Assembly: GCA_964640155.1 (NCBI GenBank)
Contig: CAZXEQ010000002.1
Span: 322,342 to 386,341, forward strand
Source of the DNA: an uncultured bacterium
GTDB taxonomy: Bacteria > Auribacterota > JACPWU01
DNA length: 64,000 nucleotides
Direction of reading: 5' to 3'
Shown: in pieces, positions 378 through 63,427 of the stretch
Layout of the letters: each line of letters starts with the position of its first letter
Position numbering within the stretch: the first letter of the stretch is position 1
The notes under the pieces: generated by a model
The model's database searches: none
What the model saw: the letters and a program-made list of their open reading frames with translations, nothing else
Told to the model about the DNA's origin: nothing
Program-made: the position numbers and the translations under genes

Positions 378-737
378 ATGCGCTACGTTGATGGATATGT
401 TTTACCCGTACCTAAGAAAAATTTGAAAGCCTATATACAAATGGCACAAATGGCTAGAAAAGTTTGGCGAGAGCACGGGGCTCTTGAATACGTTGAATGT
501 ATGGCTGATGATGTGAAGTCAGGCAAGTCCACGTCTTTCCCGCAAAGCGTAAAGCTAAAACCTGGCGAGATTGTGATTTTCGCGTACGTTGTATTTAAGT
601 CGCGCGCTCATCGTGACCGTGTCAATAGTAAGGTCATGAAAGATCCGAGAATTGCAAACATGTGTGATTCGAAAAAGATGCCTTTTGACGGGATGCGCAT
701 GTTCTGGGGTGGATTTAAGAGTATCGTTGAAGGCTGA
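378..737 (+). CDS. DUF1428 family protein
   Basis: 119 aa; YVDGYV.PVP...REHGALEYVEC..DDV...MPFDG.RM.WGGF pattern typical of DUF1428; AGGAG-like RBS upstream. Confidence 0.7.
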   Translation: MRYVDGYVLPVPKKNLKAYIQMAQMARKVWREHGALEYVECMADDVKSGKSTSFPQSVKLKPGEIVIFAYVVFKSRAHRDRVNSKVMKDPRIANMCDSKKMPFDGMRMFWGGFKSIVEG

Positions 738-14445: not shown

Positions 14446-14564
14446 GGGAGGCCTGACATAGCATAATGCAAATCATGCACTGCATGATTTGCGACTGTTA
14501 GGAGGGCCGGGTGGCCGACCGGAGTGAGTGTAACGAACGTAGGCGCCGAATCCCCCCCTCTCCG
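14446..14564 (+). repeat. tRNA-downstream element copy 3
   Basis: GGGATTCGAAGGGAG start, internal hairpin (gcaaatcatgca/tgcatgatttgc), GGGTGGCCGACCGGAGTGA module, ends with cgaatccccccctctccgaagttta duplicating the tRNA-Ser(GCU) 3' end and flank. Confidence 0.5.
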
Positions 14565-19238: not shown

Positions 19239-21176
19239 ATGGCTAAAAAGAAAAAAGGTTTCCCAAAAGAAATGATGCAAGGTAAGCCCTTTAAGCCAGC
19301 GATGTTTTGGATTTTATTAGGCGCAGCCCTTCTCTATCTTTTTAATATTAATAATATTGCTAAAAAGGGTGTGGATCATCCTTCCTATAGCCAATTCTTT
19401 GAGTCCGTGAAAAGTGGCAATGTGCGTGGAGTTGATCTTATGGGCGATATTGTTCGGGGTGAATATCAAAATGGACAACGGTTTTTACTCAACATTCCTA
19501 AGGAAGACAGTGCGTTATTGGCTGCGTTAAGAGAGAATGTTCGAGATTTTAATATTCGCTCGGAAAATAACCTTTGGGCCAGCCTTCTTTTTTCATTAGC
19601 CCCTATGGTGCTCTTTATTGGGTTTTTATGGTTTTTTGTTTATCGTCAAATGAAAGGGGTTGGAGGCGGTGCGCTCAGTTTTGGAAAATCTCGAGCCAAA
19701 CTTTTGACCAAAGATCGGGAAAAAATTACTTTCAAAGATGTTGCAGGTGTAGATGAGGCGAAAGAAGAACTACAGGAAATCATCGAGTTTTTAAAAGACC
19801 CTAAAAAATTTCAGAAATTAGGCGGACGTATTCCCAAAGGCGTTTTATTAATGGGACCTCCAGGTTCAGGGAAAACACTTCTTGCGAAATCGGTTGCGGG
19901 TGAGGCAGATGTTCCTTTTTTTACCATTAGCGGGTCAGATTTTGTGGAGATGTTTGTGGGTGTAGGGGCTTCTCGCGTTCGTGATCTTTTTGAACAGGGG
20001 AAGAAGCATGCCCCCTGTATTATTTTTATTGATGAAATTGATGCAGTGGGTCGCCATCGTGGAGCTGGTATTGGTGGCGGACATGATGAGCGTGAACAAA
20101 CGTTGAACGCTATTTTGGTGGAGATGGATGGATTTGATACACAAGAAGGCGTGATCATCATGGCGGCTACCAACCGACCTGATGTATTGGATCCAGCTCT
20201 TTTGAGACCAGGTAGATTCGATCGACAAGTGGTTGTAGATTTACCGGATCTTCATGGACGTTTGGGCATTTTAAAGGTGCATACCAAAAGAGTGGTTTTG
20301 GCTCAAGATATTGATCTTTCTATCATTGCACGTGGTACGCCTGGTTTTTCTGGAGCAGATTTGGCTAATTTGGTGAATGAAGCGGCTCTTTTGGCTGCAC
20401 GACATGGCAAGAAATCCATTAGCTTGCCGGAAATGGAAGAAGCCAGGGATAAGGTGCGTTGGGGGCGTGAACGAAAAAGTCGAAATCTTTCTGAAGAAGA
20501 TAAAAGGATTACTGCCTATCACGAATCTGGACATGCCTTGGTTCTGCATTTGCTTCCAGAAACAGAACCTTTACATAAGGTAACGATTATTCCTAGAGGT
20601 GTCGCTTATTTGGGAGCTACCATGCAGCTTCCAGAAAGAGATAAATACACAGAATCTAAAAAAGAAATCTTAGGCCAGATTACAGGTATGATGGGGGGTC
20701 GTGTAGCTGAAGAAATTATGTTTGGAGAAATTACTTCGGGTGCGTCCAATGACATCAAAAACGCAACAACACTCGCCCGAAAAATGGTATGCGAATGGGG
20801 GATGAGTGATAAGTTAGGCCCTATGACTTTTGGCGAGCATGAAGAACATATTTTTTTAGGTAGAGAAATTTCAAGATCTGTTGATTATTCGGAATCCACA
20901 GCCATTGAAATTGATCGTGAGGTACGTCGCATCATTGATGAATGCTATCAGAGAGCCAAAAGCATTATTATAGAAAATAAAGACAAATTGATTGCCCTGG
21001 CTGAAACTTTAATCAAAAGAGAAGTGATGGAAGGCAAAGAAGTTGATGCGATTATCTCTGGGAAAGTAGTTCCTCATATCGAACCTTCTGCAAATCCTTA
21101 TGACCGGATTTTAAAGAAGCGGTCTCAACAAGATGTACAGGCGATTCATGAACCCCAAACCGAGTCTGCCCCCTGA
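19239..21176 (+). CDS. ftsH: ATP-dependent zinc metalloprotease FtsH
   Basis: N-terminal TM segments, AAA Walker A GPPGSGKT, Walker [10 protein letters not shown], zinc protease motif HESGHAL. Confidence 0.93.
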
Positions 21177-22014
21177 AGTAAAATCTATTTGGAAAATTAA
21201 AGATCGAACGTTGACCTTTTCTCGGCGTCCTCTCATCATGGCTATTCTCAATGTTACTCCAGACTCTTTTTCAGATGGAGGGCGATTTTTAGATAGAGGA
21301 AAAGCAATTGAGCAGGCAATGATATTGGTTAAAGAAGGTGCGGATATTTTGGACATTGGAGGGATGTCAACACGTCCAGGTGCAGAGGAAATCCCTGTAG
21401 AAGAAGAACTGAGGCGTGTGATTGAAGTAATTCAAGCTTTGAGTTCTCAAATTAAAATTCCTATTTCTATTGATACCTATCGAGCGCAGGTTGCTGAACA
21501 GGCTTTAGCAGCGGGTGCCCATATTGTGAATGATATTGGGGCTTTAGGCCTAGATTCTAGAATGGCTTCTGTTGTGAGGGACATGGGGGCAGGTCTTATT
21601 CTGATGCATATGAGAGGAACTCCCCAGACCATGCAAAAAGACTTACATTATGAAGATTTACTAGAAGAGGTTTCGAAATTTTTAAAGAATCGTTTACAAG
21701 TTGCTCGAGAAAATGGAATTAGTGAGGAGCAAATGGTTGTGGATCCCGGTCTTGGTTTTGGAAAAAGTTTCGAGCAAAATTTAGAAATCTTAAAGAATCT
21801 AGAGTTCTTTCATCAGATGGAACGTCCTCTTCTTGTAGGCCCTTCCCGAAAATCATTCATTGGCCAAATCTTGCAGAATACTCCTGAAAAAAGGCTCTGG
21901 GGGACACTTGCTTCTGTCACGGCCTGTTTTTATCACAGAGCAAATATTCTTCGTGTTCATGATGTGCTCCCTGTTTTTGAGTTTTTAAAAGTCCTTTGTG
22001 AAATTGAGAAATAG
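21133..22014 (+). CDS. folP: dihydropteroate synthase
   Basis: ILNVTPDSFSDGG pterin-binding signature; overlaps 3' end of ftsH so true start is probably an internal Met. Confidence 0.85.
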   Translation: MYRRFMNPKPSLPPEVKSIWKIKDRTLTFSRRPLIMAILNVTPDSFSDGGRFLDRGKAIEQAMILVKEGADILDIGGMSTRPGAEEIPVEEELRRVIEVIQALSSQIKIPISIDTYRAQVAEQALAAGAHIVNDIGALGLDSRMASVVRDMGAGLILMHMRGTPQTMQKDLHYEDLLEEVSKFLKNRLQVARENGISEEQMVVDPGLGFGKSFEQNLEILKNLEFFHQMERPLLVGPSRKSFIGQILQNTPEKRLWGTLASVTACFYHRANILRVHDVLPVFEFLKVLCEIEK

Positions 22015-22030
22015 GTTTTGCTATAAAAAT

Positions 22031-22150
22031 ATATTCTTTAAGTAAGAAGCGGGTCCTGACGCTTGGCAGCCTCACCATACTTATGAAAAATTGCGCGCGG
22101 TGGGGCTTCCCCGCCAAGCGTCACCCATATCTATAAAGAACATACTTTTA
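22031..22150 (+). repeat. palindromic repeat element (RPE-like) copy A, intergenic folP-cdaA
   Basis: Aligns to the other six copies (gggtcctgac...aaaaattgcgcgcgg.ggggc..ccccgcc.agcgtcaccc); most diverged copy. Confidence 0.6.
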
Positions 22151-22244
22151 ATAAGTTCAACCGGAAAAGTAGATTTTTGAATTTTCCGTTATCTCTTTCG
22201 AATCAAAATGAAGTAAAATCTTTTTAACAACAAAGCGAGATTTT

Positions 22245-30805: not shown

Positions 30806-30875
30806 AAAGTATAGAATTTGTGATGAATCTTTTCAATGATTTATAACAATGTTTGCTCAATAGATATTGTAATTA

Positions 30876-30998
30876 AAAGTGTGTACTTTTAAAAAAGTGG
30901 CAGGGCCTGACACTCGTCATCCCCACCGTGCTCATAAAAAATTGCGCGCGGCGGGGCTCCCCGCCGAGTGTCACCCGTATTATAAAGGACACACTTTT
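30876..30998 (+). repeat. palindromic repeat element (RPE-like) copy B, intergenic greA-pbpC
   Basis: Terminal inverted repeats aaagtgtgtactttt / aaaggacacactttt, internal GC-rich hairpin gcgcgcggcggggctccccgccgag. Confidence 0.7.
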
Positions 30999-31008
30999 AT
31001 ACATGCTA

Positions 31009-33210
31009 TCACTCAACATGAATATTCACTTTTGCTGAAGCGCCTGTTTCGTCTGTAACGTAAATCTCATGCAGGCCAGGTTGAGGAATCCAAAAAAGAG
31101 CTTTTTCTGGACGGGTTTTCCCTATGAGAAGCCCATTCACAAACCACCATCGCCAGGAATGAGGCGATCCTCCTATAGACTGAAGAGGTAGTTTTTGATT
31201 TTTTTGAAAAGAGGGGGCGTCTAAGAAAAATTTTTGATTTGAAGAAATAGAAGAAATGGTTAGTTTAGAAATATCTTTTTCAAGTTCAATAGATTTTGCT
31301 AAACCTTCGTCCTGGATTTGAGGCCATGGTTTATTTTTCGGCTTTAAGCAAGATAGAAGTTTTAAAGTCAAGGGTGCTGCCAAAGTTTGTCCAACTAATT
31401 CATGAGAGCCTTTCCCAAGAGAGTTTCCAAGCCATGTTACAAGTGTGTATTCATGTGTTACTGCTACACACCAAGCATCTTTGTGTGCACTGCTTGTGCC
31501 TGTTTTCCAGGCAGGATTAAATGGAATGGCTTCAGGACAAACAGCGTAAGTTCGTTTGGGATCACTTAAGGCATTCAGTACTTGCCAGCATGCTTTTTGA
31601 GATAATATATTTTGATGGTGTGAATAAAAGTGCGGTCCTTTAAAAAGTGGCGGGTCCTGCCACTCGTCAGCCCCAACGTGCTCACTAAAAGTTGCGCGCG
31701 ATGGGGCCCCCCGCCGAGTGTCACCCGCATCTGTAAAGGACACACTTTTATCTACAGGATTTACATTTTGTGTGGCAGTGTCAGTATTAGATGTTAAAAG
31801 AGGAATATAAGTGACAGGCAGATGAATTCCTCCTCGCCCCAGTGTTGCAAAAGCTTCTGCAAGTTCTATAGGAGAAGCCTCGGCTCCTCCTATAGCTAAA
31901 GAAAGGCCATATCGATCTGGAAATTGCTCCAGTCTTTTAAATCCTAAACTTTGTAAAATTCCAACTACGCGAGCGATGCCTATTTTAGAAAGTAAAATCA
32001 TGGCGGGGATATTTCGACTTTGAGCAAGTGCTTCTGCCGCACACATAAAGCCTCTAAAAGTATGATCAAAATTGCTAGGGGTGTAGCCCTCCCAGCTCAA
32101 AGGAAGGTCTTTTAAAATTGTTGTGGGGGTGCAAATTCCTGCTTCAAAAGCGGCTGCGTAAATAAATGGTTTTAATGTAGAACCTGTTGAATAGTAACGG
32201 TTGGATAAATCTAAATTATTTGCATCGTCACATAAATTAATCGAGGCCAAACACTCAGAAGTTTGTGTGTTTAAAAGAACAAGTGAAAGAGCGTTGATCT
32301 GAGAAGATTTTAACTTTTCGAATTCTTGTTTGGCTATGAGGGTTAACTGCTCTTGAATATCTTTATCTAAAGAGGTTTTAAATTTTCCTTGTTGAAATTT
32401 TTCCTTTAAGGTCAGTAAGATGGGCAGAATTCCTGATTTTTTTTCTTGTGGCAGAGCTTGCCATGTGGCTTGAATAGGTTCTTCAATAGCGCGTGCGTAA
32501 TCTTGCTCAGAGATCATTTTTTCTGATAACATTCGAAACAAAACGTGATTACGTCTCTTAAGTGCACGTTCTATAAAACGATCTGGGCGATAGCGATTGG
32601 GACTTTGAGGAAGGCCTGCCAAAAGGGCAGCTTGGCTTAAAGAAAGATTGCGACATGAAATTCCAAAATATCTCCAGCTTGCAGCACCTACCCCGATTAA
32701 ATTCCCTCCCAAAGGACATCGATTGAGATATTCTGTCAAAATTTCATTCTTACTCATTTTTCTTTCTAATTGATAAGCACGAATAGATTCAATCAGTTTG
32801 GATGAGAAAGTCCGTGGTTTTGGATAACGTAAATGTTCAACTTGCATGGTAAGAGTGCTTGCGCCACGTATGATTTTCATGGCTTTAAAATCTTGCCAAA
32901 GAGCAGCAGCAACGCCAATCCAGTCCACTCCATGGTGTTGATAAAAACGATGATCTTCGACGGCAACAATTGCTTTAAAAAGATAAGGGCTTATTTCTTC
33001 TTCTTTTAATGGAAAATACCATTCATTTTTTTCTGAAACAAAAGCCCCCAAAGGCTTTCCTTCTCGATCTTCTATCCAAAGGCTGGGTGGAGGTTTTGGA
33101 GTGGGAGGATAAGACCAGGAGTAAACTGCAATAGAAAACGAAATACAAATAAAACTGAATACGCTAATAATTCCCAGTATGAAAATTTTGAAAGAATGTT
33201 TAATGGTCAT
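31009..33210 (-). CDS. pbpC: penicillin-binding protein 1C (transglycosylase/transpeptidase)
   Basis: N-terminal TM, glycosyltransferase motifs (EDHRFYQHHGVD; RGASTLTMQ), transpeptidase STGSTLKP; start overlaps stop of upstream A2M gene. Confidence 0.88.
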   Translation of the reverse strand: MTIKHSFKIFILGIISVFSFICISFSIAVYSWSYPPTPKPPPSLWIEDREGKPLGAFVSEKNEWYFPLKEEEISPYLFKAIVAVEDHRFYQHHGVDWIGVAAALWQDFKAMKIIRGASTLTMQVEHLRYPKPRTFSSKLIESIRAYQLERKMSKNEILTEYLNRCPLGGNLIGVGAASWRYFGISCRNLSLSQAALLAGLPQSPNRYRPDRFIERALKRRNHVLFRMLSEKMISEQDYARAIEEPIQATWQALPQEKKSGILPILLTLKEKFQQGKFKTSLDKDIQEQLTLIAKQEFEKLKSSQINALSLVLLNTQTSECLASINLCDDANNLDLSNRYYSTGSTLKPFIYAAAFEAGICTPTTILKDLPLSWEGYTPSNFDHTFRGFMCAAEALAQSRNIPAMILLSKIGIARVVGILQSLGFKRLEQFPDRYGLSLAIGGAEASPIELAEAFATLGRGGIHLPVTYIPLLTSNTDTATQNVNPVDKSVSFTDAGDTRRGAPSRATFSEHVGADEWQDPPLFKGPHFYSHHQNILSQKACWQVLNALSDPKRTYAVCPEAIPFNPAWKTGTSSAHKDAWCVAVTHEYTLVTWLGNSLGKGSHELVGQTLAAPLTLKLLSCLKPKNKPWPQIQDEGLAKSIELEKDISKLTISSISSNQKFFLDAPSFQKNQKLPLQSIGGSPHSWRWWFVNGLLIGKTRPEKALFWIPQPGLHEIYVTDETGASAKVNIHVE
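31627..31750 (+). repeat. palindromic repeat element (RPE-like) copy C, in frame inside pbpC
   Basis: Reverse complement translates without stops as KSVSFTDAGDTRRGAPSRATFSEHVGADEWQDPPLFKGPHF within the PbpC ORF. Confidence 0.7.
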
Positions 33211-36200
33211 GAATGTGAATGGGTTGCAATTTTCATTGTTTCATTGTCACGACTGATGCTGTTAATTGAAATATCATACATGCATTCAGCTTTTACAGGG
33301 GGAACAGTAAAAGTTCCAGGAGTCACAGCCCTGGCTAGATAAGTATATTGTGCTTTCCCTTTGTCTAACATTTTTCCGTAGAGCACAAGACGATCATCAC
33401 GAATATCGATATGACTATCCATAAATGTAGTTTGAGTAGGGTCTTTGAGAATAGAAGCTGAAGTTGCAAGCCTTGGATTTTCAATTTCAAGTCCAGCGGG
33501 AAGCAAATCTTCAATGACCATATTGTCATAACCCAAAGGACATTCTAGATGTATCTCTACTTGTATCAAGTCTCCACTACAAATTTTATCTAGGGCGATT
33601 GCGTGTCCCTGTTGATCAAGATATCTTTTTCTCACACTTATCCCATGATCTTCATTTAAAGGAGGCTCTTTGGCAAGGCCTGTGATGCTCCATGCAACAT
33701 AGCCCTTTGTTTTTTCAGCTCCTGAGATTTTAACTGAAAATTCTTTCCCATTCAGAAATTTATTTGAAGAATTCCAGAGAAGAGAATCTCCATTCCCTGT
33801 TTCAGAAATTTTCTCTGTCCCCGCCCAAAGTTCGGCTGATGTAAAAGGTTCTCCAAAATCTGTTTCCTTTAAATAAGACCCCAGTGCAAGAAGAGCAAAA
33901 GCATGATCTTGCGTACTTTGCCATTTTTTTTCGCCGCCGGCTTGGGCAAGTTCTTTAACCAATTTGGGAAGGGCTGGATTTTGTGGATCAAGTTCAATCA
34001 GACTTTGAATTAAAATAGCTTGATCTCGAATAGGGGACCCAATGTTTCCAGATAGGTCTCTGTTTTGGCGAGGGTGAGGTAGATTCTGAGGAATTAACTT
34101 TAAGGCCAAATCTCGTCTGCCAGAATAAAGCCAGGCCAGGGCAAGATAAAAGCGAGTTGAAGGATGGATGCTAGAGGAGATAGAAGTTGGGAGAGTGGAA
34201 GGTCTTTGAAAAATATCTTCCAGACGTGACATCATGGATCTCTGGGGATATCCCGCTTTAGCAAGAACAAAACAGGCATAAGCCTGAATCTCTAAAATAT
34301 TGGGTTGATCAGAACTTTCGTTTAATAATTTTCGAACATAATTTAAAAGTCGATCGCGAAAATCAGTTGGAATAGAGAAGCCGGCGTTTTCTGCTTCGGT
34401 GATAAAATGTGTTGCATAAACACTGGCCCAGCTCCAGCTCTCAGTATAGCCAGGCCACATAGCAAGTCCCCCTTCAGCTGTTTGCATACTGATCAAACGA
34501 TTAAGAGCTGTTTCAACTCTTTGATGAATGTATTGAGTATTAAATGGTTCTGGGAAAATCTTCTCTCCTAGTTTTTGCAATCCAATGAGAGGAAAGGTGG
34601 TGCTAACCGTTTGTTCGGCACATCCATGGGGGTATTCATTGAGATAATCCAAAGCCTTTGTCAGATTTAAAGTGGGAAATGGAGTTACGTGAATATTCAA
34701 CTGTGTTGTTCCCTCAATCCATTTTTCTGGAATTCTGATTTTAAAATCTTGATGGGGTTTAAGGGTTGCATATCCTCCTTCAGAAATTGAAGGACAGGCA
34801 GGACGAATAGGGAATATGAGATTTTGCTGATATTCTTGTCCATTGAGTTGCGCTTTGATTTTAAGACGAGCTATTCCCATTTTATTCTTAGCTTTCAAAG
34901 GAATGGTGATCACGGTTTGAGCGTTATCGGGAATGGAGTTTGTAGTAAAATTGATTTTTCTTTCGGAGGAGTGTGGAAAATAAACAGGACTTTTATTGTC
35001 TAGTTCTATTGAGAGGTTAGCAATGCCTTCACTTCCCGTATGATTGAAAATGACAATCGGTATTTCAAAATGATCATTATTTGCAGCAAAGCGAGGAGTA
35101 GTACTTTGTAACATGAGAGGAGATTTAACAAAAATGGGCTTAGATGCTGATCCAAAAAATTTTTTAGAATGAGCAATGGCCATGACTCGCAATTGACCTG
35201 TGAATTCTGGAAGACGAAAATCAACTTTTACGTTTCCATTTTCGTCACAGCGAAGTACTTTTGAAACAAGTGCAACATTTTTCATACGTTGTATAGACAA
35301 TGGAGTTAAATGACGTGGCTCATAACCTCCATCTCCTCCCACCGAACTTTTAGGATTTATTTTTGGAATCTCTGGGAAAAGTTCTCCATAAAGATCTGAA
35401 ACAAATACGTTCAAAGCTCGATTTCGATGAAAGAATGAAAAAGGATCTGGGGGTGAGAAATTCGTGAGTTGAAGAATCCCTTCATCTACGATTAACAAAG
35501 TGACCCTTGCATTTTTAGCAGGTTTATTTTGAGGGGTTAAAACTTTTGCTTCAACACGGATTTTGTTTTTGGGCAGGATTTCTTTTTTTGTTTGAATCTT
35601 TATTTTCAGCTTTTGATCGTTATTGTTGATCGCAAGGCGAGTCACGCCAAAAGCACGATGGATTTTCCATGGAGCCTTGGAATGGACGGGCTGAATCACC
35701 GTCGCACTTACATAGGCATTGGGACGATAGCTTTCTAAAATATCAATCGGAATAGATATATGAGATTGTGTCATGGTCAGAACTTTGTGAAAGAGAACAT
35801 TCTCTGTTTCTATCGTTAAAAGAAGTTGCCCTGGGAAAGGACTGCGAACAATGACTTGCGCTTGACCTCCAACTTTCAAAGAGGACGAATATCTATTAAA
35901 GTGCGTCTTTTTAAAAAGAAGTGGGTCCTGCCGCTCGTCAGCCCCATCGTGCTCAGTAAAAGTTGCGCTCGATGGGGCCCCCCGCCGAGCGTCACCCACA
36001 TTTTTAGAATCATTTTTTAATTCTTTGCCCATAGGAATAATTTCAATTTGTAATTGCTCTGGGTTCTCTCGAGAGACTGAATCCTCCCAGCCATTTTCAC
36101 TGCTCACATAAAATCCATGTGAAGTGAAGCTGCCTGTTTGAGAATCTTTGATAGCAATCACATAAGACCCTTCACTGGGAGGAATGATTTCAAAATGTCC

Positions 36201-38948
36201 TTTCTCTTGTTCTAAAATTGCATAAGAAGAAGATGCTTTTTCCAGTATACGTGTTGAGTCATAATGATAGCTCCCATCGCGATAGGTCATGATATTGTTC
36301 CAAGTCTCACGAAAAAGTTGTATCTCCATTTGTTTCGAAATCTTGGCTATTTGCCCATGCCCAGAAACACATGCAATATCAAAAACATACGGAGAACCGG
36401 GCTGAGCTTTTTGATTTTGTTGAGGACGTATGCCGACATAATATGGAACAGTATCAATGAAAACTCTTTTTGTGGCACTGACAGCCCTACCGCCCATTTC
36501 TTGAACACTTCCCAGAACAGTTAATTGCCAGGGACCCGTATACGAGGGGGTTTCTTTTATAAGAGAGTTCGGGGGGTGATTGAGAAGAAGAGAAAGATCT
36601 ACTTTCCATTCACCTTTGCCTTTCTCATTTAATTTAATCTTAGGCGACTCAATCGATTGTCCTTGGGGAAGAATACCTCCAAGTGTTTTAAAAGCATTGG
36701 CAGAATCTGTGAAAGTCCATTCTTTCCAATGTTTGGGTTTGAATGGTGCAGGATCGAGACGACTTGAAAGTGTTGCATCTGTTCCTGAAGCAGGTTGTCC
36801 AAAAAGATAGTTTGCTGCAATATGAACTGAAAGAGATTGTGAGGATAAAGTATAGCGATCATGGCGAATATTTTTTAAATTTAAAGCAACTTTCATTCTA
36901 TCGGGAATAAATTCCTCAACAAAAAAAGAAGTTGTTCCAAATGTTTTAGCATCAGCATCTTTTGATTTTGGAAGGCCAATGGATACAGTCCAATTTCCAG
37001 TGGGAATATCTTGAGGTAATTTGACAGAAAGGTAAACCATTCCAGAACTGTCCACCTTGGCCATGTGTCCTTTCCAATTTCTCCCATCGGGCCTATAAAA
37101 TTGACACCAGACAGGAAATTCTTCGGGGGTACTTAAATGAGGCCCTCGAATGATTGCCCAGAGATGGACTTTTTCACCGGGTCTATAGGCTCCACGTTCA
37201 GAGTAGACAAAAGCTTCATAGGCTTTGGATGAATAAGGACTCCCAGAAATATCAAAATGAGAATAGGAAAGTTCGCTTGTTCTTAAATCTAACCATGTCA
37301 AATGGGCGGGCTCTGTGGCAGCGTTAAAATTTGCAACTACTACGACAGGTTTCTCATCGTTAGAGGTTTCAATGGTATTGATTTTAATAATACCATTTTC
37401 ATCAGAAATTCCTTCTCCCAAAAGTTGATTCTTATTGGAAAATAAGCGAATGCGTACATGCTCCATGGGTTTACCTGTACTTAAAGACAGAGTCCAAACA
37501 AAAAGACCATGAGGGAATCTCTTGGCCACTAAACCAATGTCAGATAATGTAACAACCGTTGTATCGGATAACTCCCAGGCATATCCTTGATTCTCATTCT
37601 CGGCTTTGATTTGAATTTCATAAACCCCATTTTGCTTGAGATTTTCAGGCAGGAGCTCATCCAAGGATAAATGAATATCCTGAACTTTATTTTTCTCCAT
37701 TTCTAATTTAAGAGATTTTTGTGCGATTACTTGACTAAAATGATGAAGACCCATCCATTGATTCTCATAAACCGTGTTTCTCCAATGGACAATATTATTC
37801 TCATACATTTTTGTGAGAGTGATTTGAATGTTTTGAACATTGATAGCGTGAGCTAGAATCATTCGATTCCCTTTAGCTCCCAAAAACCCATGATCCTGTT
37901 CAAACCACACAGAAGCCTTACGATCTGGGATAAAAACACTAAAGAGATCTTCCTGAGGATAATTTTTCGAATCATTTTTGATGCGAGGTGCATTTACTTT
38001 CAATGCATATCGGTTTCCAGGGATAAAATCTGCCTCAAGACTGACTCCAAACCATTCTCGAATCAGTGTGAAGGGTAAAATAGGTTCAATAGAAAGAATT
38101 TCTTTTAAAATTTCTATATCGACATCATTATTGAAATAAAGTTGCAGTCTAATTTTTCCTTTTGAAGAAGAATAAGGTTCTACTTTTGTAATCATTAAGT
38201 GGCGGTTAAGGGTCAATTGCGTTTCATAAAGATTGGTTAATCCTAAAGGCCCACTAATCCCACATAGTCCTTCTCGAATCCTTACAATCACTTGAAGATA
38301 AGAGGATATATTTTGATAGAGAAAAGGAGTGGGCTCTGTCATCACGCGTATCACATTTGCGGTTACGCCTTCATAAAGGCGAAAAGGGATTTTTTGATGA
38401 ACCAGAGATTCAATCTCCAGAAATTTTGCAACTTCAGTTGGAAGCATTTTGTCGTTAAATTCAATTTCAATCATAAACTGATTTTTTTCGTCAAAGGCTG
38501 CTTGGCGTACAGATAAAATTTGCAAGGCTGGGGTTTTGACGGTTGCAGAATACGACTGATTCAGTAAAAACCCTTCCTTGGACTTTAAAGAATGAAGAGG
38601 AAAAGTAAAAGTAAAGGCTGTTGCTTTGGGGAGGTCTTTCTGGGGTGTAAAAGTAAGCTTTCGAGTGTTCACCCATTCCCAATGTCCAGGGATGAGGTAA
38701 GACGCATCGCCTGAACTCTTGATGATGACTTTGGATGAAACATCTTCACAAACCATATCTAAATTAAATTCCCAGGATAAAACAGGCCGTGTTCCTGTCT
38801 CAATATTGTTTCCTGGGTTAAAGCGTTCTATTTTAAGAACATTGAGCGTTTTTAATTGATAAGCATGATGAAATGCTGCCCAGGCAAGAATATTTGTAAT
38901 TGCAAAACAAAAAACGGTTATCCAAAATCGTTTGTGTAACATGAACAT
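33207..38948 (-). CDS. alpha-2-macroglobulin family protein (bacterial A2M, thioester-containing)
   Basis: 1913 aa, N-terminal signal/anchor, thioester motif GCAEQ, large MG-domain architecture; genetically coupled to pbpC. Confidence 0.9.
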   Translation of the reverse strand: MFMLHKRFWITVFCFAITNILAWAAFHHAYQLKTLNVLKIERFNPGNNIETGTRPVLSWEFNLDMVCEDVSSKVIIKSSGDASYLIPGHWEWVNTRKLTFTPQKDLPKATAFTFTFPLHSLKSKEGFLLNQSYSATVKTPALQILSVRQAAFDEKNQFMIEIEFNDKMLPTEVAKFLEIESLVHQKIPFRLYEGVTANVIRVMTEPTPFLYQNISSYLQVIVRIREGLCGISGPLGLTNLYETQLTLNRHLMITKVEPYSSSKGKIRLQLYFNNDVDIEILKEILSIEPILPFTLIREWFGVSLEADFIPGNRYALKVNAPRIKNDSKNYPQEDLFSVFIPDRKASVWFEQDHGFLGAKGNRMILAHAINVQNIQITLTKMYENNIVHWRNTVYENQWMGLHHFSQVIAQKSLKLEMEKNKVQDIHLSLDELLPENLKQNGVYEIQIKAENENQGYAWELSDTTVVTLSDIGLVAKRFPHGLFVWTLSLSTGKPMEHVRIRLFSNKNQLLGEGISDENGIIKINTIETSNDEKPVVVVANFNAATEPAHLTWLDLRTSELSYSHFDISGSPYSSKAYEAFVYSERGAYRPGEKVHLWAIIRGPHLSTPEEFPVWCQFYRPDGRNWKGHMAKVDSSGMVYLSVKLPQDIPTGNWTVSIGLPKSKDADAKTFGTTSFFVEEFIPDRMKVALNLKNIRHDRYTLSSQSLSVHIAANYLFGQPASGTDATLSSRLDPAPFKPKHWKEWTFTDSANAFKTLGGILPQGQSIESPKIKLNEKGKGEWKVDLSLLLNHPPNSLIKETPSYTGPWQLTVLGSVQEMGGRAVSATKRVFIDTVPYYVGIRPQQNQKAQPGSPYVFDIACVSGHGQIAKISKQMEIQLFRETWNNIMTYRDGSYHYDSTRILEKASSSYAILEQEKGHFEIIPPSEGSYVIAIKDSQTGSFTSHGFYVSSENGWEDSVSRENPEQLQIEIIPMGKELKNDSKNVGDARRGAPSSATFTEHDGADERQDPLLFKKTHFNRYSSSLKVGGQAQVIVRSPFPGQLLLTIETENVLFHKVLTMTQSHISIPIDILESYRPNAYVSATVIQPVHSKAPWKIHRAFGVTRLAINNNDQKLKIKIQTKKEILPKNKIRVEAKVLTPQNKPAKNARVTLLIVDEGILQLTNFSPPDPFSFFHRNRALNVFVSDLYGELFPEIPKINPKSSVGGDGGYEPRHLTPLSIQRMKNVALVSKVLRCDENGNVKVDFRLPEFTGQLRVMAIAHSKKFFGSASKPIFVKSPLMLQSTTPRFAANNDHFEIPIVIFNHTGSEGIANLSIELDNKSPVYFPHSSERKINFTTNSIPDNAQTVITIPLKAKNKMGIARLKIKAQLNGQEYQQNLIFPIRPACPSISEGGYATLKPHQDFKIRIPEKWIEGTTQLNIHVTPFPTLNLTKALDYLNEYPHGCAEQTVSTTFPLIGLQKLGEKIFPEPFNTQYIHQRVETALNRLISMQTAEGGLAMWPGYTESWSWASVYATHFITEAENAGFSIPTDFRDRLLNYVRKLLNESSDQPNILEIQAYACFVLAKAGYPQRSMMSRLEDIFQRPSTLPTSISSSIHPSTRFYLALAWLYSGRRDLALKLIPQNLPHPRQNRDLSGNIGSPIRDQAILIQSLIELDPQNPALPKLVKELAQAGGEKKWQSTQDHAFALLALGSYLKETDFGEPFTSAELWAGTEKISETGNGDSLLWNSSNKFLNGKEFSVKISGAEKTKGYVAWSITGLAKEPPLNEDHGISVRKRYLDQQGHAIALDKICSGDLIQVEIHLECPLGYDNMVIEDLLPAGLEIENPRLATSASILKDPTQTTFMDSHIDIRDDRLVLYGKMLDKGKAQYTYLARAVTPGTFTVPPVKAECMYDISINSISRDNETMKIATHSHS
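35898..36010 (+). repeat. palindromic repeat element (RPE-like) copy D, in frame inside the A2M gene
   Basis: Encodes VGDARRGAPSSATFTEHDGADERQDPLLFKKTHF inside the A2M ORF, homologous to the peptide encoded by copy C. Confidence 0.65.
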
Positions 38949-39008
38949 TCTCCAAAATCCAAAGTTTTTTAGTTAGAAATAGTAGGAAAATAATCTCACA
39001 TATAAACT

Positions 39009-39156
39009 TAAGTCCTCGGGCTTTTCACCGTCCTTTAGGATGAGGTAAGAAACGGGGCCTGCCACTCGTCAGCCCTACCGTGCTCATGAAAAATTGCGCG
39101 CGGGGCGGGGCTCCCCCCGCCGAGTGTCACCCGTATTGTAAAGGACACACTTTTTT
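39009..39156 (+). repeat. palindromic repeat element (RPE-like) copy E, long variant
   Basis: Core as other copies plus 5' extension gtcctcgggcttttcaccgtcctttaggatgaggtaagaaacgg shared with copy G. Confidence 0.7.
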
Positions 39157-39368
39157 ACACACGATCGGGAAAATTTTCTTAAAAACACTTTGAGATTTTC
39201 GAGAAGCAGGGTCAAGAAGAAAACAGAAGTGATTTATAAAATACGAAGTAACTCGCTGAAGGAGAGAAAGTAGGGATAAAATTTTTTTGAAAAATTATTT
39301 TACAATTAAAAAAACTTGAAGATTTTTCTAAATCTCAAGCTCGAAGTTTAAGGGATTTCTCAAAAGGA

Positions 39369-40508
39369 TTAAAGCTTTCTTACTTTGACATGAGCTTCTT
39401 CTAATAAGCGTAGACTTACATCCCCTACAGAATAGGCATGACTATAAACAACTTCTTTGATGCCACTATTGATAATCATTTTGGTACACATCAGACAAGG
39501 TGAAAAAGTAGAGTAAATTGTAGAGTCTTTAATGCTGACCCCATGATAAGCCGATTGTGTGATCGCATTTTCTTCAGCATGTGAGCATAAACATTCATCG
39601 AGCTGAGTCCCTTGTTGGGAGAAGCTGTTGCATCGTAGACAACCTCCATCCATACAATTCTTAGTACCACGGGGCGTTCCATTATAGCCCGTGGCAATGA
39701 TGCGTTTGTCTTTAACAATAACCGCCGCGACTTTTCGTTTGATACAATTGCTGCGTAAGGCAACTACTTTAGCAATTCCTATAAAATAATCATCCCAGCC
39801 AGGTCGACTAGAATTTGTTCCATATTTTTTTAATACCTCAATCACTTGTTCGTAAATTTTTTCAAGAGATCCTGCATTCATTAAAGAAGTATCTGAAATG
39901 GCTTGTGTTTGGTCTAGTTGTTGATGGTTAGGATTTTGAGATGAACGTTCTGCGTTTTCCAGACGTATAAATTCTTCTAGAGTCTGAGGGTCATTCTCTC
40001 TTCCTCGGGCTTTGATTCGCTCAAAACGTAGTTCCAGAGGAGCATCAATAAAAAGCAGAATAAAATCTTTTCTTTTCTTGAGGGATTTAGCTTCTTCAGG
40101 ATTGCGGATAGAATCTACAACATAATTTTTATCAACATCTAGAGTAGACGAAATCTTATCTGCTAAAACGGAAGGTCCAAACTGACTACGAAGTTCATTC
40201 CCAACTTGAATTAAATTTTCGCGTGTGATTTGAGTCCGTCGATTTTTGAGTTCATCTCGAAGAACATCCGAAAGCGAGGAATAAATAAACCCCCGTTGTT
40301 TTAAAAATTCTGCGATAACTCCTTTGCCTGAGCCATTTCTTCCAGTGAGTCCAATAATCACAAGATTAGAATCCTTTCTTATCAATTCTACTTTCTCGAT
40401 AGATTCTACTATGAGGCGAGTTGTTGGACAACCATTGTTTAAACTAAAAGCGAGAACGATTTTATAATTAAAAGTGTGTACTTTTAAAAAAGTGGCAGAG
40501 CCTGCCAC
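39369..40508 (-). CDS. P-loop nucleotide kinase / dCMP-type zinc deaminase fusion protein
   Basis: N-terminal IIGLTGRNGSGKG Walker A (CoaE/dNMP-kinase-like), C-terminal deaminase with CSHAEENAI and SPCLMCTKMI zinc motifs; the annotated Met start lies inside repeat copy F so the true start is uncertain. Confidence 0.7.
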   Translation of the reverse strand: MAGSATFLKVHTFNYKIVLAFSLNNGCPTTRLIVESIEKVELIRKDSNLVIIGLTGRNGSGKGVIAEFLKQRGFIYSSLSDVLRDELKNRRTQITRENLIQVGNELRSQFGPSVLADKISSTLDVDKNYVVDSIRNPEEAKSLKKRKDFILLFIDAPLELRFERIKARGRENDPQTLEEFIRLENAERSSQNPNHQQLDQTQAISDTSLMNAGSLEKIYEQVIEVLKKYGTNSSRPGWDDYFIGIAKVVALRSNCIKRKVAAVIVKDKRIIATGYNGTPRGTKNCMDGGCLRCNSFSQQGTQLDECLCSHAEENAITQSAYHGVSIKDSTIYSTFSPCLMCTKMIINSGIKEVVYSHAYSVGDVSLRLLEEAHVKVRKL

Positions 40509-40596
40509 TCGTCAGCCCCACCGTGCTCATGAAAAATTGCGCGCGGCGGGGCTCCCCCCGCCGAGTGTCACCCGCATATATAAAGTACACACTTTT
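40471..40596 (+). repeat. palindromic repeat element (RPE-like) copy F, overlapping the 5' end of the kinase-deaminase ORF
   Basis: Near-identical to copy B (aaagtgtgtacttttaaaaaagtggcag.gcctg...). Confidence 0.7.
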
Positions 40597-40831
40597 CTAC
40601 ACATCATCGCAAGAACTTCAATTAGAATATTTTAATTTTACTTTAATGATTTTTTAACCTTTCTACTGAGATAATGCCTCTGTTAAAAAAGGCAGCATTG
40701 TTTCAGAGATAAAAAAATCTTTTCTTCAAATAGGGGGTTATGGTATATTTTGCGCACCTTACTCATCATGTGGGATGATGAGAGGATGTAGTTCAAAGTT
40801 AATTATTTAAATCAAACCAAGGAGATCAGTA

Positions 40832-41456: not shown

Positions 41457-41770
41457 TTTAGAGATTTTTCAGAAAAAGGGTGTTCTTTGTAATGCGGATG
41501 ACACTTGTCGGTGGGACTGACAAGTGGTAGGAACCACTATTCCTACAAAGAATACACTTGCTATAATTAATGTTTATTTACATTCTTTAAATTGGTATTC
41601 TTATCCAGTATTAGCTTCGCCCTTGGAGGGGAGCCAACGGGCCTATCCAACATTGTGAGAAAAACATTCAAATCCTATTAAAGGGATATTGAAAGTTTTT
41701 CTTTCTCTAGATTTTGGCCCTGTCAGTATTCGAATGTCCAACGTGTGTCTTGGGGAGCCATAAAGCTATT

Positions 41771-43312: not shown

Positions 43313-43325
43313 GATATCCCTAATA

Positions 43326-43475
43326 AAAAGTGTGTCTTCGGACTTTTCGCCACCTTTAGGATTATATAAGAAACGGGTCCTGCCACTCGTCAGCCCCACC
43401 GTGCTCATAAAAAATTGCGCGCGGTGGGGGGCCTCTCCGCCGAGTGTCACCCGTAGTGTAAAGGACACACTTTTT
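43326..43475 (+). repeat. palindromic repeat element (RPE-like) copy G, long variant
   Basis: TIRs aaagtgtgtc / aaaggacacac; 5' extension cttcggacttttcgccacctttaggat shared with copy E. Confidence 0.7.
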
Positions 43476-43580
43476 GCGCACGATTGATTTTCCTCATTGG
43501 TCCTCAAATTCTACAGTTCTGGTCCCTATGACGTGAGTATGCATAAGAAAAAGTTTGAGGGTATTTAAAATTCGGATAGA

Positions 43581-44277: not shown

Positions 44278-44412
44278 ATGGGAGGATTTGAAGGGAGCTC
44301 CGACGCCTTTATGATGCTGATCATGCGGTGCATGATCAGCGACGTCTAGTCGGAGCGGGTGGCCGACCGGAGTGAACGAAGTGAACATAGGCGCCAAATC
44401 CCATCACCAGCT
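44278..44412 (+). repeat. tRNA-downstream element copy 4
   Basis: GGGAGGATTTGAAGGGAG start, long hairpin (gctccgac...gatgctgatcatgc-ggt-gcatgatcagc...gtcggagc), GGGTGGCCGACCGGAGTGA module, ends with caaatcccatcaccagctgtt duplicating the tRNA-Thr 3' end. Confidence 0.5.
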
Positions 44413-46475: not shown

Positions 46476-47672
46476 ATGGCTAAGGAAAAATTTGAGAGAA
46501 AGAAACCACATGTAAACGTGGGAACGATTGGACACGTAGATCATGGTAAAACGACATTGACCGCAGCATTGACCAAAGTACTGTCAAAGAAGGGTCAAGC
46601 CAAAGAAATCACCTATGCCGACATCGCCAAAGGCGGAGTCGTGCGAGATGACTCAAAGATTGTAACCATTGCCGTATCACACGTAGAATACGAAAGCACC
46701 AATCGACACTATGCGCATATCGATTGTCCAGGACATGCCGACTATGTCAAAAACATGATCACTGGAGCAGCCCAAATGGATGGAGCCATTCTAGTGGTAA
46801 GTGCAACTGATGGACCCATGCCCCAAACAAGAGAACACATCTTATTGGCAAGGCAAGTCGGAGTACCTAACATCGTCGTATTCTTAAACAAATGTGACAC
46901 CGTAGATGATCCAGAACTATTAGACCTCGTAGAACTAGAAGTAAGAGAACTATTAACACAATATCAATTCCCCGGAGACAAAACTCCTATCGTCAGAGGA
47001 AGCGCATTAAAAGCACTACAGGGAGACACGAGCGAACTGGGAGAGCCATCCATTGCTAAACTACTAGAAGCATTGGACAGCTACATTCCAGAACCCAAAA
47101 GAGAAATCGACAAACCCTTCCTCATGCCCGTAGAAGACGTATTCAGCATCACTGGAAGAGGAACCGTAGCAACGGGAAGAATTGAAAGAGGCATCGTAAA
47201 AGTAGGAGAAACCCTAGAAGTCGTAGGACTCAAACCCACTAAAAACGTCGTCGTCACTGGAGTAGAAATGTTCCGAAAAGAACTAGACCAGGGACAAGCA
47301 GGAGACAACGTAGGAGCCTTGCTTAGAGGAGCAGAAAAAGACGACATCGAAAGAGGACAAGTCTTAGCGGCACCCGGAAGCATCAAGCCGCATACCAAAT
47401 TCAAAGCAGAAGTCTATGTCTTGAGCAAAGAAGAAGGAGGAAGGCACACACCCTTCTTCAATGGATACAGACCTCAATTCTACTTCAGAACAACGGATGT
47501 GACTGGAGTGGCGAACCTAGCAGGTGGAATAGAAATGGTAATGCCTGGAGACAACACGGCATTAGAAGTAGAGTTGATCAGTCCAATTGCAATGGACAAG
47601 GGCTTAAGATTTGCAATCCGAGAGGGAGGCAAGACCATCGGAGCAGGTAGAGTTACTGATATTATTGCGTAA
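46476..47672 (+). CDS. tuf: elongation factor Tu (copy 1)
   Basis: [11 protein letters not shown]1 motif, [12 protein letters not shown]; 398 aa; nucleotide-identical to copy at 62231-63427. Confidence 0.95.
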
Positions 47673-62230: not shown

Positions 62231-63427
62231 ATGGCTAAGGAAAAATTTGAGAGAAAGAAACCACATGTAAACGTGGGAACGATTGGACACGTAGATCATG
62301 GTAAAACGACATTGACCGCAGCATTGACCAAAGTACTGTCAAAGAAGGGTCAAGCCAAAGAAATCACCTATGCCGACATCGCCAAAGGCGGAGTCGTGCG
62401 AGATGACTCAAAGATTGTAACCATTGCCGTATCACACGTAGAATACGAAAGCACCAATCGACACTATGCGCATATCGATTGTCCAGGACATGCCGACTAT
62501 GTCAAAAACATGATCACTGGAGCAGCCCAAATGGATGGAGCCATTCTAGTGGTAAGTGCAACTGATGGACCCATGCCCCAAACAAGAGAACACATCTTAT
62601 TGGCAAGGCAAGTCGGAGTACCTAACATCGTCGTATTCTTAAACAAATGTGACACCGTAGATGATCCAGAACTATTAGACCTCGTAGAACTAGAAGTAAG
62701 AGAACTATTAACACAATATCAATTCCCCGGAGACAAAACTCCTATCGTCAGAGGAAGCGCATTAAAAGCACTACAGGGAGACACGAGCGAACTGGGAGAG
62801 CCATCCATTGCTAAACTACTAGAAGCATTGGACAGCTACATTCCAGAACCCAAAAGAGAAATCGACAAACCCTTCCTCATGCCCGTAGAAGACGTATTCA
62901 GCATCACTGGAAGAGGAACCGTAGCAACGGGAAGAATTGAAAGAGGCATCGTAAAAGTAGGAGAAACCCTAGAAGTCGTAGGACTCAAACCCACTAAAAA
63001 CGTCGTCGTCACTGGAGTAGAAATGTTCCGAAAAGAACTAGACCAGGGACAAGCAGGAGACAACGTAGGAGCCTTGCTTAGAGGAGCAGAAAAAGACGAC
63101 ATCGAAAGAGGACAAGTCTTAGCGGCACCCGGAAGCATCAAGCCGCATACCAAATTCAAAGCAGAAGTCTATGTCTTGAGCAAAGAAGAAGGAGGAAGGC
63201 ACACACCCTTCTTCAATGGATACAGACCTCAATTCTACTTCAGAACAACGGATGTGACTGGAGTGGCGAACCTAGCAGGTGGAATAGAAATGGTAATGCC
63301 TGGAGACAACACGGCATTAGAAGTAGAGTTGATCAGTCCAATTGCAATGGACAAGGGCTTAAGATTTGCAATCCGAGAGGGAGGCAAGACCATCGGAGCA
63401 GGTAGAGTTACTGATATTATTGCGTAA
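62231..63427 (+). CDS. tuf: elongation factor Tu (copy 2)
   Basis: Identical in nucleotide sequence to 46476-47672 as far as I can read it; canonical fusA-tuf-rpsJ position. Confidence 0.95.

Follow-up and report, generated by a model that had tools for sequence, protein, structure and literature searches.

A palindromic, MITE-like repeat read in frame through the transpeptidase domain of penicillin-binding protein 1C

Background

How does a palindromic repeat come to lie within the reading frame of an enzyme, and does the gene survive it? This question is raised by pbpC, the gene for penicillin-binding protein 1C (PBP1C), in a 64-kb stretch of DNA that was analysed as a whole and is called the window in the following. 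Its tuf...rpoBC...tuf gene layout is suggestive of Coxiella burnetii and hence of a QMITE, but this origin was rejected in view of a GC content of about 39%, a nearest named PbpC that is chlamydial and the lack of any Coxiella match to the core pattern of the repeat. The initial annotation had placed a palindromic element at positions 31627-31750 within pbpC and had regarded it as a lineage-specific in-frame insertion of about 40 residues between the transpeptidase region and the C-terminal domain, an event taken to be rare outside Rickettsia. Our analysis leads us to propose, with a probability of roughly 0.85, that pbpC was the target of a non-autonomous transposon (MITE) and that the gene survived its insertion.

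Results

The annotated element is contained in a longer repeat copy (31614-31761; Table 1), across which the minus-strand ORF 31009-33210 is open with neither stop codon nor frameshift, and the peptide quoted in the initial annotation is indeed part of the translation. PbpC, whose nearest named relative comes from a Chlamydiae MAG, is matched by Pfam PF00912, PF00905 and PF06832, and its catalytic motifs SxxK (residues 344-347), SxN (398-400) and KTG (569-571) are all intact. The match to PF00905 is broken at residue 490 and covers profile positions 2-207 of 299, whereas the BiPBP_C domain comprises residues 648-730; the insert hence interrupts the transpeptidase domain itself, after SxN and before KTG, rather than separating this domain from the C-terminal one as first described. 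It is also longer than had been estimated. The element (148 bp) and an 8-bp duplication add up to 156 bp, or 52 codons, and in alignment with the closest ortholog the insert measures 159 bp and encodes 53 aa (residues 479-531), since a separate 3-nt indel adds to the 148-bp element and the 8-bp duplication. An intein was considered and rejected, 52 aa being too short, and so was an intron, since in an Rfam search of the window tRNAs alone reached gathering score, with no repeat or intron family among the matches. In the mRNA sense the pbpC copy is predicted to form one long imperfect hairpin of -65.6 kcal/mol (z = -5.3), an energy equalled in 0 of 200 shuffles, and such a hairpin within the pbpC mRNA could affect translation or stability.

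Table 1. Host genes, repeat copies and target-site duplications in the 64-kb window
Feature	Position	Strand	Remarks
pbpC (penicillin-binding protein 1C)	31009..33210	-	733 aa; Transgly, Transpeptidase, BiPBP_C domains
alpha-2-macroglobulin gene	33207..38948	-	1913 aa; upstream operon partner of pbpC, overlapping pbpC start by 4 nt
short-form copy inside pbpC	31614..31761	+	148 nt; translated on minus strand as residues ~480-528
target-site duplication TATATTTT	31606..31613	.	mRNA-downstream copy AAAATATA, within Q-N-I codons
target-site duplication TACATTTT	31762..31769	.	mRNA-upstream copy AAAATGTA, within Q-N-V codons
short-form copy abutting pbpC 3' end	30863..31010	+	duplication GCTCAATA / ACTCAACA
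in-frame copy in alpha-2-macroglobulin gene	35886..36030	+	145 nt, most degraded; residues 973-1021
long-form copy just upstream of alpha-2-macroglobulin gene	38992..39166	+	175 nt; duplication AGGAAAAT / GGGAAAAT
short-form intergenic copy	40458..40608	+	151 nt; duplication GCGAGAAC / GCAAGAAC
long-form intergenic copy	43313..43486	+	174 nt; duplication ATTTTTTT / ATTTTCCT
diverged short-form copy	22014..22161	+	begins at stop codon of folP-like gene (21133-22014)
degenerate copy, internal deletion	41462..41579	-	orientation opposite to other copies

The copy in pbpC belongs to a palindromic repeat family with seven full copies and one degenerate copy in the window, two of the eight being genic. 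Seven copies, all in one orientation, were found by repeat search, and the core 14-mer has seven matches as against 0.11 expected; an nhmmer profile detected each of the seven full copies with E = 1e-38 to 1e-45 and added the degenerate one at 41462-41579. Copies range from 145 to 175 nt in length, with the copy at 38992-39166 containing an extra ~27 nt near its left end as compared to the short form. Besides the eight copies in 64 kb, members of the family are present in L001 (the locus of the closest ortholog) and L010; a copy on a 1-kb Logan contig has a duplication that matches at 7 of 8 positions. Most copies carry terminal inverted repeats of ~24 nt at both ends (GATnnnGTnnATAAAAGTGTGTCC). 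When the element ends are placed 12 nt outside the AAAAGTG core, a choice made after inspection of the data, the flanking 8-mers of the seven copies match at 4, 6, 7, 3, 7, 7 and 6 of 8 positions, that is, an 8-bp target-site duplication with 6-7 matching positions accompanies five of the seven copies (under the null, P(>=6) = 0.009 for each site) and a weak one (3-4 of 8) the remaining two, the alpha-2-macroglobulin copy among them. Because of the ~24-nt inverted repeats and the 8-bp duplication per copy we regard the repeat as a MITE. The element itself, small and multicopy throughout, lacks a transposase-coding ORF, and neither a transposase nor an autonomous parent element was found in the 64-kb window, so the mechanism of mobilisation is deduced from the duplications alone.

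The stop codon of pbpC (TGA) is made up of one nucleotide of a duplication and two of the copy at 30863-31010. The mechanically listed ORF 39369-40508 extends 51 nt into the copy at 40458-40608. A simple terminator scan made no call within any copy of the element, and blastn against plasmids gave no match. When 100,044 species genomes and the JGI metagenomes were scanned with the exact pattern of the conserved core, a test that would overlook distant homologs, nothing but chance matches emerged, in genomes with a GC content of 65-68%.

Evidence for an insertion comes from the closest ortholog, in L001, which is syntenic and encodes a PbpC 79% identical to that of the window. It is devoid of the insert and at the exact site contains the 8-mer AAAATGTA once, as expected of an empty site, which bears out the lineage-specific in-frame insertion proposed at the outset. 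The copy abutting the pbpC 3' end is likewise missing from L001, which provides a second comparison of a filled with an empty site, for which the pbpC-greA spacer, misaligned by MAFFT, was aligned by eye on the duplication. Conversely, L001 has a family member of its own in the spacer between the alpha-2-macroglobulin gene and pbpC (nhmmer E = 1.7e-30), a diverged copy that an exact 14-mer scan missed and nhmmer recovered. This, together with the vacancy in L001 of sites that are filled in the window, indicates that site occupancy has changed since the two lineages split. One might argue that the segment is an ancestral one that relatives have lost by deletion, or that it is an assembly artefact due to repeat collapse or chimerism, as assemblers can be misled by repeats and the comparison is with one close ortholog. 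However, neither version readily explains inverted repeats and an 8-bp duplication on one side and exactly one 8-mer in the relative on the other; moreover, collinearity with L001 extends to either side of the insertion site, the insert sequence is missing from the 87 other PbpC homologs, and a 502-kb NCBI contig is recorded as encoding this same 733-aa product. We therefore consider such an origin extremely unlikely.

But is the gene that received the element still functional? pbpC is dispensable in E. coli, the insert lies within the catalytic domain, and the presence of four copies of the element in or beside one operon suggests relaxed constraint. The insertion might therefore have inactivated pbpC, the open frame being that of a pseudogene still too young to have acquired stops. 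Yet the window PbpC retains every column invariant over 88 homologs, among them those of SxxK, SxN, KTG and the glycosyltransferase motifs, before as well as after the insert. The overall dN/dS is about 0.11, and for the part downstream of the insert it is 0.13, although at a dS of ~1.06, near saturation, these values average over the whole divergence rather than the time since insertion. Nor is the copy brand new: one of its eight duplicated positions is mismatched, the copy most similar to it is 88% identical, and it has undergone a -1/+1 indel pair; still the 2.2-kb frame is open. The AlphaFold2 model of PbpC (mean pLDDT 88.6, pTM 0.83) predicts an intact host fold with confidence and only the insert to be disordered, residues 477-479 and 486-529 being the only segments with pLDDT below 50 and without secondary structure; the insert is thus modelled as a disordered surface loop, which answers a check suggested in the initial annotation, and pbpC does not look like a pseudogene. 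Finally, the homologs accommodate up to 127 aa in this loop. Inactivation of pbpC hence appears quite improbable. Most likely, pbpC yields a functional PBP1C of full length, extended by a floppy loop of 52 aa, which we infer to be made and active, and the insert is a tolerated passenger that adds no new domain.

A second in-frame copy is found in the alpha-2-macroglobulin gene, where it adds 51 aa (145 + 8 = 153 bp) and adjoins the N-terminal edge of the match to the A2M_BRD (bait-region) domain (residues 1022-1161). This insert is present neither in the L002 ortholog nor in most homologs; the homolog search gave distant fragments only, among which the insertion site is variable. The copies in the two adjacent genes are translated in the same element frame and share the peptide GDxRRGAPSxATFxEHxGADExQDPxLFK, and over their common 112-nt core they are 86% identical, the pbpC copy sharing 61-74% identity with the rest of the family in the window. 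It is therefore conceivable that the insert was co-opted, with the ~40-aa element peptide giving the alpha-2-macroglobulin/PBP1C pair a shared function, be it as an interaction motif, as a flexible tether or by offering additional bait for proteases beside the bait-region domain. Against this, the peptide is predicted to be disordered, the close relative L001 manages without the insert, and over the full element the macroglobulin copy, at 66-76% identity to the others, is the most degraded. Moreover, nearly the same peptide is encoded by intergenic copies, from which it follows that the similarity reflects common descent and not selection. A word-indexed protein search with the element peptide returned three small ORFs only, missing even the two known host proteins, and when 1.84 billion representative proteins were searched exhaustively, the only additions were the macroglobulin, an ORF of 33 aa and a weak match to the unrelated P0138; apart from its two hosts, the peptide was thus found there only in small spurious ORFs within element copies. 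All this makes co-option very unlikely.

The tolerated insertion of a passenger, by contrast, agrees well with the properties of the landing site. In 88 homologs the PbpC loop varies from 10 to 127 aa in length (median 26), and in the solved structure of Pseudomonas PBP1a (4oon) a long acidic stretch aligns at this loop. In all six other long-loop homologs examined (L002, L011-L015) this loop likewise contains palindromic DNA in frame (z = -4.1 to -10.8), unrelated to the window element, so that with the window seven of seven carry palindromic DNA there, mutually unrelated. Tentatively, the transpeptidase loop of PBP1C may serve widely as a landing pad in which palindromic MITE- or REP-like repeats are captured in frame repeatedly. 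The window family, with its one nearly open frame, would then be a chlamydial counterpart of the Rickettsia palindromic elements (RPEs), and further insertions in frame would be expected in other parts of the genome, even if we are inclined to doubt a statement this broad. Were it true, repeat capture rather than ordinary indels would drive most of the variation in loop length in the PVC group and other bacteria.

Taken together, a 148-nt MITE, over its length a nearly perfect palindrome, would have jumped into pbpC, making an 8-bp target-site duplication, and may have been mobilised by a DDE-type transposase. The frame was kept because element and duplication together make 52 codons. The gene survived because the element frame that is read is free of stops in this copy and because the element landed in a hypervariable loop at the protein surface, disordered and tolerant of extra length. 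In the element frame read in pbpC, other copies have a TAA in a run of T/A homopolymers, and this usual stop of the family is bypassed in the pbpC copy by the -1/+1 indel pair.

Discussion

In-frame insertion of palindromes cannot be called rare outside Rickettsia, as had initially been assumed: in-frame MITE fusions are "not unusual" according to a 2024 review (PMC10969869), in-frame insertions of QMITE2 have been reported in Coxiella (PMC5896051), and the other long-loop homologs of PbpC provide six cases out of six. The type of event being already established in the literature, our finding extends known biology and does not change it. What it offers is a worked example of a mobile element that adds protein sequence while leaving the gene unbroken, documented by an empty site, a duplication, the arithmetic of the frame and structural tolerance. 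The host is not a Rickettsia, two genes of a single operon are affected, and one of them encodes an enzyme with well-understood active-site geometry. By extension, variation in PBP1C loop length and unexplained low-complexity inserts in proteins of the PVC group can be traces of palindromic repeats and not functional domains.

A close parallel in behaviour is offered by the RPEs (Ogata et al. 2000, 2002, via PMC10969869), which resemble the window element as ~150-bp palindromic repeats of an intracellular-type bacterium that insert in frame into unrelated housekeeping genes and encode a conserved peptide sited where the fold of the host protein stays undisturbed. Insertion in frame and compatible with the host fold is also what we find here, the frame being open and the insert alone disordered in a confidently modelled fold. 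The likeness proposed here is nevertheless one of behaviour, the host, probably a chlamydia-like bacterium, belongs to a different phylum, only two of the eight window copies are genic, and we do not claim membership of the RPEs. The window element has clear ~24-nt inverted repeats and 8-bp duplications, and we know of no report of either for RPEs. On account of these features the family is best filed as a MITE behaving like an RPE, rather than as an RPE.

REPs, to our knowledge, make no target duplication. REP/REPIN sequences, mobilised by RAYT transposases, share with the window element that they are GC-rich palindromes, mostly extragenic, located at gene 3' ends and biased in orientation (PMC3733652), but they are 20-40 bp long with GTAG or CGTC tags (PMC3733652) as opposed to 148 bp with terminal inverted repeats and 8-bp duplications. 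Among enterobacterial MITEs, intragenic ERIC and others (Delihas 2007, via PMC10969869) are similarly small, bear terminal inverted repeats and open frames and occur in frame in genes, yet are unrelated in sequence and host. QMITE2 of Coxiella burnetii is alike in being 150-190 bp long and highly structured, in its variable direct repeats of 7-11 nt, in having long and short versions, distinguished by some 40 nt in a 5' segment, and in the location of its copies, mostly at gene 3' ends, some overlapping stop codons and occasionally inserted in frame in ORFs (PMC5896051). However, the search of 100,044 species genomes with the exact conserved-core pattern detected no sequence relationship (no match in Coxiella), QMITE2 has a GTAG REP core and is targeted by IS1111, whereas the window element has no consistent GTAG tag and the window no IS1111, and the in-frame cases in Coxiella lie in hypothetical ORFs as opposed to the well-defined enzyme described here (PMC5896051). 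The window element represents a new MITE family that behaves like the RPEs of Rickettsia.

Results

The window carries on its minus strand an open reading frame for a class A penicillin-binding protein of the PBP1C type, whose nearest named homolog comes from a Chlamydiae MAG and whose start overlaps by 4 nt with the stop of an alpha-2-macroglobulin gene, the usual operon partner of pbpC. Four copies of a palindromic element lie in or beside this operon. The pbpC frame is open across one of them with neither stop nor frameshift, as the initial annotation had stated; the interval it gave for the palindromic repeat (31627-31750) falls inside this copy and the peptide it quoted is found in the translation. 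At the copy abutting the 3' end of pbpC, the stop codon TGA (31009-31018 region) consists of one target-site-duplication base and two terminal element bases, and this copy leaves the length of the protein as it is in the closest syntenic relative (contig L001).

Genes, element copies, other repeats and transpeptidase loops. Coordinates refer to the window unless a contig is named; loop z compares the folding energy of the loop DNA with shuffles.
Feature	Location	Strand	Loop z	Remarks
pbpC	31009-33210	minus		733 aa
PbpC domains (Pfam)	residues 51-227; from 309; 648-730			Transgly; Transpeptidase; BiPBP_C
Alpha-2-macroglobulin gene	33207-38948	minus		1913 aa, bacterial type
Element copy in pbpC	31614-31761		-3.9	insert under study
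Element copy at pbpC 3' end	30863-31010			inserted into last codons of pbpC
Second in-frame element copy	35886-36030			within minus-strand alpha-2-macroglobulin ORF; same element frame as in pbpC
Eighth element copy	41462-41579	other strand		internally deleted
Core-only family member	L001:609-714			alpha-2-macroglobulin-pbpC spacer
tuf genes	46476-47672; 62231-63427			one after tRNA cluster (Tyr, Gly, Thr), the other after rpsL-rpsG-fusA
~92-nt repeat	14463-14554; 44311-44402			77% identical, two copies
P0002 loop	L001		0.0	short loop, no insert
P0003 loop	L002:11384-11584		-5.3	chlamydial MAG
P0022 loop	L011:11321-11674		-6.3	21-bp perfect arms
P0005 loop	L012:11510-11764		-5.5	24-bp perfect arms
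P0108 loop	L013		-10.3
P0066 loop	L014		-10.8	35-bp perfect arms
P0014 loop	L015		-4.1	20-bp arms

A repeat search found seven co-oriented copies in the window, the core 14-mer having 7 matches against 0.11 expected, and an nhmmer profile built from them scored each at E = 1e-38 to 1e-45 and detected the eighth. In an alignment of the copies and their flanks the element comes in two sizes, a short form (148 nt, with copies of 145-151 nt) and a long form (174-175 nt) that exceeds it by about 27 nt close to one end. It is bounded by terminal inverted repeats, each roughly 24 nt long (GATnnnGTnnATAAAAGTGTGTCC), and has a GC-rich palindromic core, the GC content of the element being 43-54% as compared to about 39% in the window. 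In mRNA sense the pbpC copy forms a single long imperfect hairpin (-65.6 kcal/mol, z = -5.3). The flanking 8-mers of the seven copies match at 4, 6, 7, 3, 7, 7 and 6 of 8 positions, where a null of 200,000 site pairs drawn at random from the window gave probabilities of 0.009 for at least 6 and 0.001 for at least 7 matches; an additional copy, carried by the Logan contig L010 (1 kb), matches at 7/8. For this comparison the ends were placed 12 nt beyond the AAAAGTG core, an offset picked after inspecting the data that holds identically at 5/7 independent sites. Because of its size forms, inverted repeats and flanking matches the element is, at the sequence level, a MITE that duplicates 8 bp of its target site. 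No transposase gene was found in the 64-kb window.

All seven full copies (22014-43486) point one way and only the degenerate eighth is inverted; four of the seven lie in the minus-strand operon, the others follow plus-strand genes, and GC skew is positive throughout the window. The copies are therefore co-oriented with replication, not with transcription. An ORF predicted to encode a kinase/deaminase fusion (39369-40508), listed mechanically, has its GTG start 51 nt inside the copy at 40458-40608. It has no Pfam domain before residue 52, so that the listed start is putative and the element may contribute N-terminal residues.

The closest PbpC (P0002, 79% identical) is encoded on L001, a 7-kb contig with the gene order of the window (alpha-2-macroglobulin, pbpC, greA, a 531-aa gene, DUF4352 and a YjeF-type gene). 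In mRNA sense its site reads GAGACACAAC, the 8-mer AAAATGTA and TTACC, with no element, as compared to CCACAC, AAAATGTA, the 148-nt element, the 8-mer AAAATATA and TTATC in the window. With this ortholog site empty, the proposal of a lineage-specific insertion is borne out. The two sites differ by 159 bp or 53 codons (residues 479-531), made up of 148 + 8 bp and a separate 3-nt indel a few bases upstream; the insert thus measures 52-53 amino acids (156 bp for element plus duplication, 159 bp against L001) and not about 40, as first estimated. L001 also lacks the copy abutting the pbpC 3' end and carries a core-only family member (E = 1.7e-30) in an alpha-2-macroglobulin-pbpC spacer that has no counterpart in the window. 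With two sites empty and the spacer filled, site occupancy has therefore changed since the lineages split, and the family itself must predate, or have crossed, that split. The core-only member is without the outer inverted repeats and is flanked by CAATTGAT and CATTGAT; a composite element, or a palindromic core that is mobile by itself, may account for it.

Among 100,044 species-representative genomes and JGI metagenomes the core pattern had only chance matches, in high-GC genomes; blastn against plasmids gave no match to the element, and Rfam scored tRNAs alone in the window. An exhaustive HMMER search of 1.84 billion representative proteins with the element peptide returned four small ORFs in element copies, the window's macroglobulin and one weak, unrelated match; PbpC is presumably represented in this set by an insert-free relative, and host proteins can be missed. 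Judged from these sequences and within the limits of the searches, the family is confined to the window's lineage and a near relative.

The pbpC insert had been placed between the transpeptidase region and the C-terminal domain. It lies inside the transpeptidase domain, between helices 447-458 and 538-548, following SxN (398-400) and preceding KTG (569-571), and the Pfam transpeptidase match breaks at residue 490. Loop length across 88 homologs is 10-127 amino acids (median 26), and in the solved Pseudomonas PBP1a (4oon) a long acidic stretch aligns here. The suggested structure check does place the insert in a loop: an AlphaFold2 model from the 88-sequence alignment (mean pLDDT 88.6, pTM 0.83) has a confident host fold and pLDDT below 50 only at 477-479 and 486-529, both without secondary structure. 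On this evidence the insertion site is a permissive loop.

Several homologs with long loops have peptides, SPGTPGEGRGEG and LTLSRRTGRGD among them, of the sort that GC-rich repeats typically yield when translated. For six of the long-loop homologs we compared the folding energy of the loop DNA with that of loop shuffles and of windows of equal length from other parts of the gene. In 6/6 the loop carries strongly palindromic DNA in frame (z = -4.1 to -10.8), control windows lying mostly between -2 and +0.5, and the six inserts are mutually unrelated in sequence. In-frame palindromic DNA at this position is therefore recurrent, not rare, and palindromic repeats seem to use the PBP1C transpeptidase loop repeatedly as a landing pad. 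In the planctomycete-type pbpC of L012 (10001-12352) one control window elsewhere in the gene has z = -8.6, which suggests a second palindromic insertion.

The alpha-2-macroglobulin copy, translated as GDARRGAPSSATFTEHDGADERQDPLLFKK versus GDTRRGAPSRATFSEHVGADEWQDPPLFKG in PbpC, adds 51 amino acids (145 + 8 = 153 bp; residues 973-1021) between strands one and two of the macroglobulin domain (Pfam A2M_BRD), on the margin of the bait-region domain. This site is vacant in the chlamydial ortholog on L002 and in most homologs; a few carry other short inserts. With 66-76% identity to the others, this is the most degraded copy; its hairpin is the weakest, its duplication is poor, and its age is probably greater.

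The two tuf genes have 100% identical 1197-nt coding sequences in differing flanks, a pattern that suggests ongoing gene conversion; a duplicated tuf would not be expected in a chlamydia-like genome. Both copies of a different repeat of about 92 nt lie about 90 nt downstream of a tRNA gene (Ser-gct and Thr-tgt), open with a perfect hairpin of 12 bp and continue with a conserved GGGTGGCCGACCGGAGTGA segment; the repeat matched no Rfam family.

Discussion

Why would pbpC survive such an insertion? A canonical insertion of 148 + 8 = 156 bp amounts to 52 codons and thus never shifts the frame. In the frame used, the pbpC copy has zero stops, other copies having 0-4. The three copies compared at this point, c30880, c43353 and that on L010, have a TAA in the T/A run that directly follows ...LF; the T-run of the pbpC copy has one base fewer and an extra base stands 10 nt beyond, whereby the TAA is bypassed and 148 nt are kept. 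The small ORFs P0122 and P0123, which are other element copies, likewise lack this stop, so that the stop-free variant may already have existed before this insertion. All invariant family columns are kept on either side of the insert, including EDxxFxxHxG, SxxK, SxN and KTG, and dN/dS against L001 (Nei-Gojobori) is 0.11 overall, with 0.13 in the 200 codons that follow the insert, values that come with a dS of about 1.06, near saturation, and average the whole divergence, not only the time since insertion. Pseudogenisation of pbpC we consider very unlikely, with the frame open and the motifs retained. Co-option of the insert, disordered in the model, seems slightly less probable still. We propose that pbpC would survive through a 156-bp unit that keeps the frame, an element frame that is stop-free in this copy, and a landing site in a permissive loop of the transpeptidase domain. 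Taken together, the most likely state, at a probability of about 85%, is a predicted functional PBP1C with a passenger loop that is neutral and disordered.

Size, inverted repeats and duplications rule out a REP/REPIN identity. In the literature covered, which was incomplete, no paper described such an element in Chlamydiae, and no sequence link to QMITE2 and no GTAG or IS1111 association was found. The initial annotation had seen the in-frame palindrome as a hallmark of Rickettsia RPEs. The RPE-like behaviour stands, as both are palindromes of about 150 bp inserted in frame with the peptide placed where the fold tolerates it, and intragenic MITEs generally behave alike; the element itself, RPEs being compared by behaviour, is a new MITE family and not an RPE. 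Nor is such insertion rare outside Rickettsia, as had been supposed, and it is least rare in this loop, considering the six palindromic loops and a 2024 review in which in-frame MITE fusions are "not unusual" and RPEs the extreme case (PMC10969869). Closest in architecture is QMITE2 of Coxiella, which resembles the element in size (150-190 bp), in long and short forms, in direct repeats (variable, 7-11 nt), in copies at gene 3' ends and in occasional in-frame insertions (PMC5896051). The finding gains a little from the in-frame copies that stand in tandem in a functionally linked gene pair, and from other lineages in which this loop is used recurrently.
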